A DNA stretch of 64,000 nt from Candidatus Iainarchaeum sp. (GTDB lineage: Archaea > Iainarchaeota > Iainarchaeia > Iainarchaeales > JAGVWC01): assembly GCA_018304465.1 (NCBI GenBank), contig JAGVWC010000010.1, forward strand, positions 243,473 through 307,472, given 5' to 3'. The notes beneath the pieces were generated by a model. The model was not told where the DNA came from. It did not search any database and saw only the letters and a program-made list of their open reading frames with translations. Positions 57,307 through 59,489 of this stretch are shown piece by piece; the first letter of the stretch is position 1; each line of letters opens with the position of its first letter. A program made the position numbers and the translations under genes.

Positions 57307-57711
57307 ATGGAATACGAAAGAATGCTTGATCGGGTGTATATGTCGCTTCCAAAAGAAGCCCTTACCAAGGAACGATTCGAAATTCCCCGCGTGGACTCGT
57401 TTGTGGAAGGAACCAAAACCATCATCCGAAACTTCTCGAATCTGGCCAAACTGGTCCGCCGAACCGACCGGGAAATCTACAAATTTTTCACCAAGGAATT
57501 CGCCGTTCCCGCGCAAATCAGCGGCGAACGACTGATCCTAAACGGAAAATTTTTCGGAAACCAAGTTCAAACCGCTTACGAAAGTTACGTGAAATCCTTC
57601 GTGCTTTGCCACGAATGCCACAAACCCGACACGCATTACGTGGACCAGTCCGGCGTACGCATCCTAAAATGCGAAGCCTGCGGCGCGATTTCGTCCGTCA
57701 AACACATTTGA
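57307..57711 (+). CDS. eif2b: Translation initiation factor aIF2 beta
   Basis: ERFEIP, KTIIRNF, CHEC.KPDT, CEACGA. Confidence 0.95.
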   Translation: MEYERMLDRVYMSLPKEALTKERFEIPRVDSFVEGTKTIIRNFSNLAKLVRRTDREIYKFFTKEFAVPAQISGERLILNGKFFGNQVQTAYESYVKSFVLCHECHKPDTHYVDQSGVRILKCEACGAISSVKHI

Positions 57712-57771
57712 ACCAAACAACGAATTTAAAAAAACAAAACACAATCAAACTAACGAATAAAAGGTGAAACC

Positions 57772-58089
57772 ATCGTCAAAAAACCACGCGTACCGCAGCA
57801 AACGGAATTCAAAGTTCGGTTGCCGAACAGAAATGAAAACGAAATGTTCGCGTTAGCGATCCAACTCATGGGCGCAACCCAAATCAAAGCCCAGTGCGAA
57901 GACGGAAAAGAACGCATGTGCCGCATCAAAGGCACCATGAAGAAAAAAGTCTGGATCCGCGCCGGCGACGTACTCATCATCCGACTGTGGGACTGGCAAA
58001 AAGACCGCGCGGACATCATCTGGCGATACTTTGGAACCCAATCGGAACACCTCAAACGAAACGGATACCTCAACAACCTACCGGTTTAA
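57772..58089 (+). CDS. eif1a: Translation initiation factor aIF1A (probable ATC start)
   Basis: KVRLP..E, CEDGKERMCRIKG..KKVWIR.GD, ADIIWRY. Confidence 0.92.
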   Translation: MVKKPRVPQQTEFKVRLPNRNENEMFALAIQLMGATQIKAQCEDGKERMCRIKGTMKKKVWIRAGDVLIIRLWDWQKDRADIIWRYFGTQSEHLKRNGYLNNLPV

Positions 58090-58126: not shown

Positions 58127-58690
58127 ATGCTTCAAAAAAAACCAGGTCCTTTTCACGGAAAAAAACCCAAGGCGTTAACAGGCCCCGCAAACAAAAAAAA
58201 ACGCGCGCAATACCGTTCTTTGCGCGGAGCAACCTACCCCAAATACCTTCAAAAAGCGTTTCCTTCAAGACCAGAACTATTCCGCGGAATGATAAACGCC
58301 AGGAAAAAAAGTAAACCCGCAGTCGAAGACTATTTTCTTCGAAGACTGTTTTCAAAAAAATTTCAACAGAACTGGAAATACAGTCAACCAGATTTTGCAG
58401 GCGTCGAGTATCTTCAACGAGTCAGAGGAATTCGAACAGAAACGAACATTCCAACTCTGATCAAATTTTCAAAAATGATTTCGGAAATGCTGGACGAATA
58501 TCGAAAAGTACAAGAACGACTGCATCAACTTACCAGCCATATCAAGCTCCCGGTAAAATACACCCAAGGCGAAGGCGCTTTGGTCCGCCACGCGTTTAAC
58601 AATTGTTTTTCCCGAATTTCCCTCCTAAAAGAATACCAATCCGTCGCAGAAAAGAGAATCAAACAACTGCGTGCCCCCGAGATATATTAA
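58127..58690 (+). CDS. Basic hypothetical protein
   Basis: ATG start; fills the gap between eif1a and rio1. Confidence 0.55.
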   Translation: MLQKKPGPFHGKKPKALTGPANKKKRAQYRSLRGATYPKYLQKAFPSRPELFRGMINARKKSKPAVEDYFLRRLFSKKFQQNWKYSQPDFAGVEYLQRVRGIRTETNIPTLIKFSKMISEMLDEYRKVQERLHQLTSHIKLPVKYTQGEGALVRHAFNNCFSRISLLKEYQSVAEKRIKQLRAPEIY

Positions 58691-58715
58691 AATCCCCTTC
58701 AGCCCTACATTTGTA

Positions 58716-59489
58716 ATGCCCAAAGACGAAACAGCGCCGGAATACGAACGATACAAGGATTTGTTCTCCGAAGAAAAAGAACACCGCACGTTCGCCAAAG
58801 TATTCGATTACAATACGATTCAAACCGTGCATCATTTGGCCAAAAAAGGATTCTTCGAACAACTCGAATTCGTGCTTTCAACCGGAAAAGAAGCCCACGT
58901 GTTCCGCGCCGTGGATCAAGCCGGACAATTTCGCGCCATCAAAATTTACAAAACCGACACCAGCAACTTCAAACACATGCAAGAATACATCGAAGGCGAC
59001 CGACGATTCCAAAACGTGCGCAAAGAAAAACACGCGTTGGTTCGCGCGTGGACTCAAAAAGAATACAAAAACCTCGATCTTGCGACCAGAGCGGGAATCC
59101 GGGTTCCGTTGCCCATCGCGTTTTCCGAGAACGTCTTGATCATGGAATTCATCGGGAAAAAAGGAATCCCCGCGCCGACCCTCAAAGACCAAGCCCCCAA
59201 AAACCCCGAAAAATTCCTCGACCAAGTGCTGGAAGCCGTGGCGGGACTCTACAACGCCGGACTCGTACACGCGGACTTGTCCGAATACAACATTTTGAAT
59301 CAAGACGACGAACCCGTTCTCATCGACATCGGCCAAGGCCTCTTAACGGGACACCCGCGCGCCAAAGAATTCTTCGACCGCGACATTTTGAACTTATCCA
59401 GGTATTTTTCAACCCAAGGCCTAAAAACAAACGCAAATACCATTCGAACCCAAATCAAGCAAAAAACCGAAAAAGGAAAAACGAAATGA
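58716..59489 (+). CDS. rio1: RIO1 serine/threonine kinase
   Basis: STGKEA, AIKIY, YIEGDRRF, HADLSEYN, IDIGQ. Confidence 0.95.
   Translation: MPKDETAPEYERYKDLFSEEKEHRTFAKVFDYNTIQTVHHLAKKGFFEQLEFVLSTGKEAHVFRAVDQAGQFRAIKIYKTDTSNFKHMQEYIEGDRRFQNVRKEKHALVRAWTQKEYKNLDLATRAGIRVPLPIAFSENVLIMEFIGKKGIPAPTLKDQAPKNPEKFLDQVLEAVAGLYNAGLVHADLSEYNILNQDDEPVLIDIGQGLLTGHPRAKEFFDRDILNLSRYFSTQGLKTNANTIRTQIKQKTEKGKTK

Follow-up and report, generated by a model that had tools for sequence, protein, structure and literature searches.

A probable AUC start codon on the aIF1A gene of an Iainarchaeales archaeon and recurrent weak starts on aIF1A across the order

The stretch of DNA analysed here (the window, 64,000 nucleotides (nt) long) belongs to a Candidatus Iainarchaeum sp. 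genome, G000, which comprises 1,246,008 bases in 15 contigs and is 91.9% complete; the metagenome runs containing the stretch come from groundwater and soil, and no RNA run is among them. The window carries the gene for the translation initiation factor aIF1A, separated from the aIF2 beta gene upstream by an A-rich spacer of 60 nt (Table 1; positions are those of the window unless a contig is named). This gene offers no ATG, GTG or TTG at the codon where its relatives begin, and its translation start is, at a probability we place near 0.8-0.85 from homology and the arrangement of the ribosome-binding sequence, the AUC at position 57772.

The encoded protein is a regular member of the aIF1A/eIF1A family (PF01176, TIGR00523), with one OB-fold domain and full-length profile matches: PF01176 matches with an E-value of 4.8e-19 and 68.2 bits (cut-off 30.2), TIGR00523 with 123.5 bits (cut-off 102.9), and NF003085 with 122.8 bits (cut-off 92). 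Its gene occurs as a single copy in G000 and is intact throughout. While the protein is ordinary when set beside its family, the start codon of its gene is the oddity. Provided that translation starts at or 5′ of the ATC, the product also shares with its relatives the segment that precedes the OB fold at the N-terminus, x-R-x-P motif included.

Upstream, the aIF1A frame is closed by a TAA at 57751, after which the codons read cga ata aaa ggt gaa acc ATC (57772) gtc aaa aaa cca cgc gta ccg cag caa acg gaa ttc aaa gtt cgg TTG (57820) ccg. A sequence-only reading of this DNA had claimed that the frame is open back to this TAA without a standard start, and the codon listing bears this out: ATG, GTG and TTG are all absent in frame between TAA 57751 and TTG 57820, the first standard start, which encodes the leucine of the VRLP motif as that reading had stated. 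It had also described a strong Shine-Dalgarno (SD) sequence, AGGTGA, ahead of the in-frame ATC, and this sequence does lie there, at a spacing of 4 nt. The 16S rRNA of G000 ends in ...GGATCACCTCCT, to which AGGTGA is complementary, so that the element counts as an SD of 6 nt. A spacing of 4 nt is also the commonest for GGTGA before ATG starts in this genome (4 nt in seven cases, 7 nt in six, 6 nt in five, other spacings in at most two each), as counted among 413 G000 open reading frames (ORFs) with an early ATG. Translated from the ATC, the protein reads (I/M)VKKPRVPQQTEFKVRLP. Judged from complementarity to 16S rRNA, the commonest spacing and alignment to the methionine of the relatives, the arrangement of ATC and SD is beyond what chance would be expected to give.

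The tRNA complement was inspected with Aragorn, which identifies 37 tRNAs in G000. These include a single initiator-type tRNA, an ordinary one with anticodon CAT, together with one tRNA-Ile (GAT) and one tRNA-Ile (TAT); none of the 37 is an unusual initiator-like tRNA reading AUC. The tRNA-Ile with anticodon TAT, encoded outside the window on the minus strand of contig C15 (bases 77728-77802), would read AUA directly, and a tRNA-Ile of this kind is uncommon in archaea. Folding of the RNA from 57735 to 57835 gives a structure no better than that of shuffled sequences (z 0.15).

Table 1. Features at the aIF1A locus, in window positions except for the window itself.
Feature	Position	Strand	Remarks
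Window	243473-307472		Bases of contig C15 of genome G000
aIF2 beta	57307..57711	+	ATG start; PF01873, E 1.4e-31; directly 5′ of aIF1A
Candidate TATA-like element	57723..57735	+	A/T-rich aatttaaaaaaac; from sequence reading
In-frame TAA	57751..57753	+	Closes the aIF1A frame upstream
Shine-Dalgarno AGGTGA	57762..57767	+	4 nt before ATC
GTG, out of frame	57764..57766	+	Inside the SD; frame closed after 30 codons, at 57856; rejected as start
ATC, proposed start codon	57772..57774	+	Methionine of relatives aligned here; kept in run contigs
aIF1A coding sequence	57772..58089	+	105 codons and TAA stop
Heptamer A_AAA_AAC	57778..57784	+	The two Lys codons; rejected as slip site
TTG	57820..57822	+	First canonical in-frame start; L of VRLP; without SD
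ORF without Pfam family	58127-58690		187 codons; between aIF1A and RIO kinase
RIO kinase	58671-59489		Next after the 187-codon ORF

To place the N-terminus, 13 related proteins with 58-85% identity were retrieved. In the resulting alignment (A1), column 1 holds the isoleucine encoded by the ATC in the window and a methionine in 10 of the 12 relatives, all ten being full-length and 58-83% identical; the two exceptions (P0005 and P0011) are short calls. The nearest full-length relatives (P0002, P0003 and P0004, 80-83% identical) open with MVKKPRV or MVKKPIV, compared with (I)VKKPRV in G000, and the 16 codons upstream of the TTG match the N-termini of the relatives (VKKPRV, QQ, EF). Family profiles extend into the same segment. 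On the stop-to-stop frame (P0001), in which the ATC is residue 7 and the TTG residue 23, NF003082 aligns its position 4 with residue 10, and its position 1 therefore falls on the ATC, while TIGR00523 aligns its position 5 with residue 15; the NCBIfam aIF1A models, aligning from residues 10-15, reach 5′ of the TTG.

These data bear directly on a shorter protein, initiated at TTG 57820 (89 residues) or ATG 57844 (81 residues), which would lack the tail and leave the open frame 5′ of its start as a relic. No canonical in-frame start precedes TTG 57820, and 57820..58089 (89 residues) is the sole canonical ORF of the frame; the PF01176 domain begins at residue 29 of P0001, so that a short form keeps the whole Pfam domain and is not excluded by Pfam; and the gene calls of JGI, Logan and ENA do start at ATG 57844 (P0021). 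Neither codon is preceded by an SD, however, and the TTG lies inside the x-R-x-P motif kept by all relatives, such that a short start removes the conserved tail and part of the motif. The profile alignments from residues 10-15 and the 16 matching upstream codons likewise speak against it, as do the synonymous nature of the sole strain difference 5′ of the TTG (57798 G>A) and the placement of the TTG in the loop of a predicted 6-base-pair hairpin; such a start is very improbable. The hairpin corresponds to a perfect inverted repeat, GTTCGG TTG CCGAAC (57814-57828), whose 3-nt loop is the TTG itself and which may be due to chance.

The base itself was checked in Logan contigs, and the ATC is kept in those of three runs (X5, X9 and X10), with no ATG at 57772, in agreement with the sequence-only reading. 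The X5 contig (57566-58180) and the X9 contig (57570-57871) show 0 differences from the window, whereas the X10 contig (57723-57873), which represents a diverged strain from a different study and year, differs only by two synonymous third-position changes, 57798 (G>A) and 57834 (T>C). Depths of the run contigs covering the site are low (2-5.5), X5 and X9 may be dependent on the source sample, and X7 does not cover 57771-57825.

Existing records of this gene fall into two forms. The NCBI protein on this contig (P0020, also in UniRef and nr) has 105 residues, opens with MVKKPRVPQQ... and matches the window translation at every residue after the first, which means that the NCBI annotation already starts the gene at the ATC. 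Translation table 11 lists ATC, ATA, ATT and CTG as possible starts. The second form (P0021; JGI, Logan and ENA, 14 contigs) has 81 residues and starts with MFALAIQ at ATG 57844; both P0020 and P0021 belong to the 90% cluster of P0011. Calls of 81 residues on 14 contigs are expected if no contig has a canonical upstream start, and the 105-residue form was never produced there by callers limited to ATG, GTG and TTG. What the data establish is the open frame, the SD and its spacing, the N-terminal homology and the presence of the base in independent assemblies; we infer that methionine is inserted at the AUC and that initiation there is of low efficiency. The AUC start put forward in the sequence-only reading has good support from homology, from the geometry of the SD, from profile coverage, from reads and from the NCBI record.

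Two further starts upstream of the ATC deserve consideration. Initiation at ATA 57757, which could occur if the transcript has no leader or a very short one, would lengthen the protein by five residues (M-KGET-I...). This codon is in frame, ATA is the commonest near-cognate start in a sister family described below (f10), and the A/T-rich box at about 57726-57733 would put the transcript start near 57756. The SD lies downstream of this ATA, though, and therefore cannot serve it; the N-termini of the relatives align at the ATC and not at the ATA; and leaderless initiation in the archaea tested is strongly AUG-dependent, so that this start is no less improbable than the short forms. The candidate TATA-like element could also be read as a promoter for the AUC start: with the usual archaeal TATA spacing of about -26/-27, which was used for placing the transcript start, transcription would possibly begin near 57755 and yield a short leader bearing the SD.

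The most far-fetched alternative combines a start at GTG 57764 with a programmed -1 slip on A_AAA_AAC, or explains the ATC as an error of sequencing or as a sign that the gene is decaying. Both the GTG and the classical slippery heptamer are present. The GTG, lying inside the SD, lacks an SD of its own, while no structure is predicted 5-9 nt 3′ of the heptamer (fold z 0.15); the heptamer consists of two Lys codons that the relatives also encode, and the relatives start MVKKP in the aIF1A frame. A programmed -1 frameshift was rejected on these grounds, namely a GTG without SD, no stimulatory structure, and relatives that start in the aIF1A frame. An error or a pseudogene is contradicted by the ATC in three run assemblies and by the state of the gene, the only aIF1A copy and an intact one. 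Taken together, starts at TTG 57820 or ATG 57844, at ATA 57757 and at GTG 57764 are unlikely.

For the nearest relatives (80-83% identical), the comparison was made at the protein level and start codons were inferred from gene calls. DNA pattern scans for close relatives returned one spurious locus in genome contigs and four loci in metagenome contigs, none of them close (three 31-39% identical, one short fragment). A JGI copy (P0022) of the P0004 relative begins with L, that is, with a leucine codon, probably TTG. In a further relative (P0019, in the P0005 cluster), the gene call runs from the N-terminal half of a GIY-YIG-type endonuclease into aIF1A in a single frame, with the junction at ...YTKIRRP|VQQPGEQVRMRVPNK, while other callers start the same gene at MRVPNK; an insertion at, or a fusion to, the 5′ end of aIF1A seems to have occurred there.

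To define the starts used by aIF1A genes across the order, 196 genomes were searched, of which 186 have an aIF1A match, and the 5′ ends were read. From 153 loci, the removal of five without the anchor motif and two running off a contig end left 146, to which 19 usable loci of a further 20 were added, five of the 19 lying outside the order. A near-cognate start was counted only where the conserved N-terminus fixes the codon (families f10 and f16, and G000) or where no canonical codon exists. An automatic caller that pitted near-cognate against canonical codons was dropped, as it made many false calls in purine-rich coding sequence. The 146 loci comprise 64 ATG, 50 TTG, 13 GTG, 12 ATA and 4 ACG calls and 3 without a call, the last being G000 (ATC), G018 (CTG) and G001 (no start assigned). 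With the start fixed by homology, at least 20 of 165 aIF1A loci have a near-cognate start (AUA, ACG, CUG or AUC). A search of the whole class found 12 genomes outside the order, and the five fetched have ATG or GTG by eye.

Sister family f10 is the richest source of these starts: half of its loci (17/34) are near-cognate, with 13 ATA and 4 ACG against 8 ATG, 6 TTG and 3 GTG. The start is the codon just before a strongly conserved ANFNSQKRKN, and it follows GGTGA or a close variant by 4-7 nt in all but three loci, which are ATG or TTG loci with a weaker SD-like stretch. Many near-cognate loci have an in-frame stop, formed by the TGA within GGTGA or by a TAA immediately 5′ of the start, which leaves no canonical codon able to serve there. 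Over the 10 codons after the start, differences from the consensus amount to 41 synonymous and 3 non-synonymous in 16 near-cognate loci and to 47 synonymous and 1 non-synonymous in 16 canonical loci, and they include Ser TCN/AGY switches; this synonymous excess in both groups indicates that the N-terminal peptide is translated and constrained (purifying selection). On a gene tree of 32 f10 loci built without the start codon, the start must have changed at least 13 times, and 8 of these changes cross between the canonical and near-cognate classes; the tree is a short one, with support below 80 at 9 of the 29 inner forks. The SD match is at least 5 nt in all near-cognate f10 loci, with a mean of 5.5 versus 4.7 in ATG loci (one-sided p 0.014, kinship ignored), and a good SD always accompanies the near-cognate aIF1A starts.

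In family f16, the start lies two codons before KKE(L/M/I)EK and is CTG in two loci, TTG in one and ATG in two; one of the CTG genomes is a closed 1.2-Mb genome. The only other aIF1A of the window's own family (L003; G001:C28:9098-12180) has no usable in-frame start: its GGTGA is followed by aaaa AAT tgg ggc, and a TTG 6 nt after the SD stands one base out of frame, beside a run of four G. This could be an indel error in a 210-contig metagenome-assembled genome or a real frameshift. Three f27 loci (L159, L202 and L188, from G084, G086 and G085) contain an in-frame GTG inside AGGTG and, three codons on, an ATA 5 nt after AGGTG; they were counted as GTG, but the ATA may be the real start, since the GTG would be without an SD of its own.

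Other genes of the same genomes behave differently: aIF1A repeatedly has weak or near-cognate starts across the order, unlike aIF1, aIF2 beta, uL29 and the Rpp29-like gene. When about one genome per family is considered (n=30), aIF1A is read as ATG 8, TTG 15, GTG 3, ATA 1 and none 3, whereas aIF1 has ATG in 29/30, the exception being G029; the two genes differ in ATG use by Fisher's test (p 1.5e-8), a significance that is overstated because related genomes are non-independent. ATG likewise prevails in aIF1 of family f10 (29/30, with one GTG) and of family f27 (12/13), and the aIF1 gene of G000 is present with a plain ATG. For aIF2 beta, again with about one genome per family, reading gives ATG in about 27/30, two or three being ambiguous. 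Crude automatic calls give ATG for uL29 in 27/30 (f10) and 24/29 (relatives), most of the others having an ATG a few codons upstream, and for the Rpp29-like gene in 27/29 (f10) and 22/28 (relatives), many of the others having an ATG nearby.

Near-cognate starts were also sought elsewhere in G000. About 1,210 long ORFs, screened crudely for an SD, yielded one other convincing case, on the minus strand of contig C6 (bases 102220-105261), outside the window: a gene of 1,013 codons for a secreted or surface protein, with an ATA 4 nt after AGGTGA. Its signal peptide, MQKKIVGLLLLLCLAVNANA, is complete only from the ATA, and the first canonical codon of the gene, a TTG, falls within the hydrophobic core, so that this gene is likely a second near-cognate start in the genome. 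Among the other candidates, a C11 ORF (GGTGAaacATC) was set aside because its odd composition resembles that of a non-coding shadow frame, and those at C9 position 21417 and C15 position 33597 were set aside on account of a plausible ATG a few codons on. A genome-wide scan for GGTGA without ORF context was uninformative. In G029, the aIF1 (SUI1) gene (L081; G029:C4:12293-15586) has no ATG, GTG or TTG before the zinc-knuckle cysteines but an ATA 4 nt after a perfect GGAGGTGA, while the other 12 genomes of its family have an aIF1 ATG two codons further on. If real, this AUA start would place the AUU-rejecting factor itself under a near-cognate codon; it is seen in one genome, and an assembly error is possible.

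Start-codon self-control of initiation factors is known for IF3 in bacteria and for eIF1 and eIF5 (upstream ORFs) in eukaryotes, and these cases provide the main genetic evidence on fidelity factors. In the mechanism proposed for aIF1A, pairing of AGGUGA (57762-57767) with the 3′ end of 16S rRNA would place the 30S subunit and bring the AUC, 4 nt downstream, into the P site, where the initiator Met-tRNA (anticodon CAU) would read it with a third-base mismatch, yielding the full 105-residue factor MVKKPRVPQQTEFKVRLP.... The output of aIF1A could then be set, or fed back, through start-codon stringency, as for infC with its AUU or eIF1 with its poor context. The yield from the AUC should depend on the stringency of the pre-initiation complex, because near-cognate codons are weak in E. 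coli and AUU is rejected by Sulfolobus aIF1. That aIF1A output is deliberately governed in this manner is a tentative proposition, which we hold at somewhat less than even odds. Its extension to the order, in which the aIF1A genes would have been selected for weak or near-cognate starts (UUG, GUG, AUA, ACG, CUG, AUC) behind a strong SD, with synthesis reporting on stringency and being corrected by it, is a shade more doubtful.

The parallels with known systems are partial. As in bacterial infC, which encodes IF3, a near-cognate AUH start stands on an initiation-factor gene behind a normal SD, the codon varies among weak starts in relatives, and output could depend on the stringency with which near-cognate codons are rejected (for the infC logic, PMC4705826). 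The difference lies in the factor: IF3 itself discriminates and its loop is direct, whereas here the factor is the IF1/eIF1A orthologue and the archaeal discriminator is aIF1; in addition, conservation of the AUC does not extend to the nearest relatives. Like eukaryotic eIF1, for which self-control is described (PMC6237735, PMC4705826), aIF1A is a factor of the pre-initiation complex with a suboptimal start site, but eIF1 uses an AUG in poor Kozak context with scanning, in contrast to a near-cognate codon behind an SD, and the factor concerned here is aIF1A, the aIF1 gene of G000 having its plain ATG. The sequence-only reading had called aIF1A an initiation-fidelity factor; the archaeal factor shown to discriminate is aIF1 (PMC4705826), so that this label stands by analogy with eIF1A and IF1.

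The AUC may also be a real start without regulatory meaning, that is, a near-neutral or slightly harmful change that drift has fixed in an archaeon with a small genome and a small population, and that is tolerable because the strong SD sustains enough initiation. Weak selection on the expression level of aIF1A, and not feedback, would in that case underlie the pattern across the order. The start-codon state does flip often, with at least 13 changes among the 32 f10 loci, and the nearest relatives are canonical at the same place; furthermore, the C6 gene (ATA) and the aIF1 of G029, which has no ATG, indicate that near-cognate starts are not strictly limited to aIF1A. Drift should, on the other hand, hit other genes as well, yet aIF1 has ATG in 29/30 twice, aIF2 beta in about 27/30, and uL29 and the Rpp29-like gene mostly so; moreover, the near-cognate loci have retained both a strong SD and conservation of the N-terminal peptide, which suggests that the site has kept its function. 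We regard drift as conceivable, at not quite even odds. A set point or feedback is nonetheless favoured, still below even odds, because the weak starts appear specific to aIF1A and are recurrent and because the SD and the N-terminal tail are maintained; the two explanations lie close to each other.

Several observations weigh against a regulated near-cognate start. In E. coli, AUA, AUC, AUU and CUG support 1-2% of the expression from AUG, and 0.02-3% in other constructs (10.1101/063800), and Sulfolobus aIF1 rejects the near-cognate AUU (PMC4705826); an essential factor made from an AUC therefore needs a permissive system or strong compensation. Basic residues in the N-terminal tail of yeast eIF1A favour suboptimal sites (PMC5756025), and feedback through the factor could therefore be positive rather than homeostatic. 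The ATC itself is not conserved, as gene callers assign the nearest relatives a canonical start at the homologous codon; it represents a lineage-specific state of a fast-changing start codon and not a conserved AUC. Within f10, most loci have an in-frame ATG 12 codons downstream, which could give a shorter form. Starts outside f10, f16 and G000 are automatic best-SD canonical calls that were not individually checked. Lastly, starts of G000 at SD-aligned spacings of 4-7, in frame, comprise 99 ATG, 22 GTG and 32 TTG; TTG is common in this genome generally, which makes the UUG part of the aIF1A trend weaker than the near-cognate part.

The two tails of eIF1A have mixed roles, and the binding of eIF1 and eIF1A is cooperative. 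Near-cognate initiation as such has precedents: two E. coli genes, infC and pcnB, are confirmed users of AUU (10.1101/063800), and ribosome profiling of Haloferax volcanii found about 30% of putative extra initiation sites to be near-cognate (PMC7261190). Ordinary alternative starts in prokaryotes are scattered, however, whereas here one essential gene is affected repeatedly across an order and the control genes mostly are not. The sequence-only reading knew of no such report for aIF1A, and a literature search that left most subscription journals uncovered found no paper on a non-canonical aIF1A start; nor did the literature searched contain comparable self-control for archaea, or for IF1, aIF1A or eIF1A in any domain. 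The novelty is the apparently gene-specific, order-wide pattern and its possible meaning, the single codon being already used silently by the NCBI annotation.

If regulation of this kind is real, aIF1A would match, for the IF1/eIF1A orthologue in archaea, the autoregulation of infC through its AUU and of eIF1 through its poor context; a coupling of archaeal aIF1A dosage to the stringency of start-codon selection would be expected, and the natural leaders would be ready for in vitro tests. Were only drift at work, the case would still illustrate clearly how an essential gene can be sustained by near-cognate initiation. For annotation, standard gene callers would cut the conserved N-terminal tail, as in the 81-residue call on 14 contigs, which affects marker-gene sets and DPANN annotation.

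The gene order around aIF1A differs from that of most relatives, in which aIF2 beta and aIF1A are separated by a gene for a DUF424 protein (PF04242, with the ending ...IPHVQIF; compare L092 1197-1487). DUF424 is absent from the matches obtained in the 92%-complete G000 with a protein query and a family query. On the 3′ side, the 187-codon ORF (58127-58690) overlaps the GTG start of the RIO kinase gene (58671) by 20 nt.

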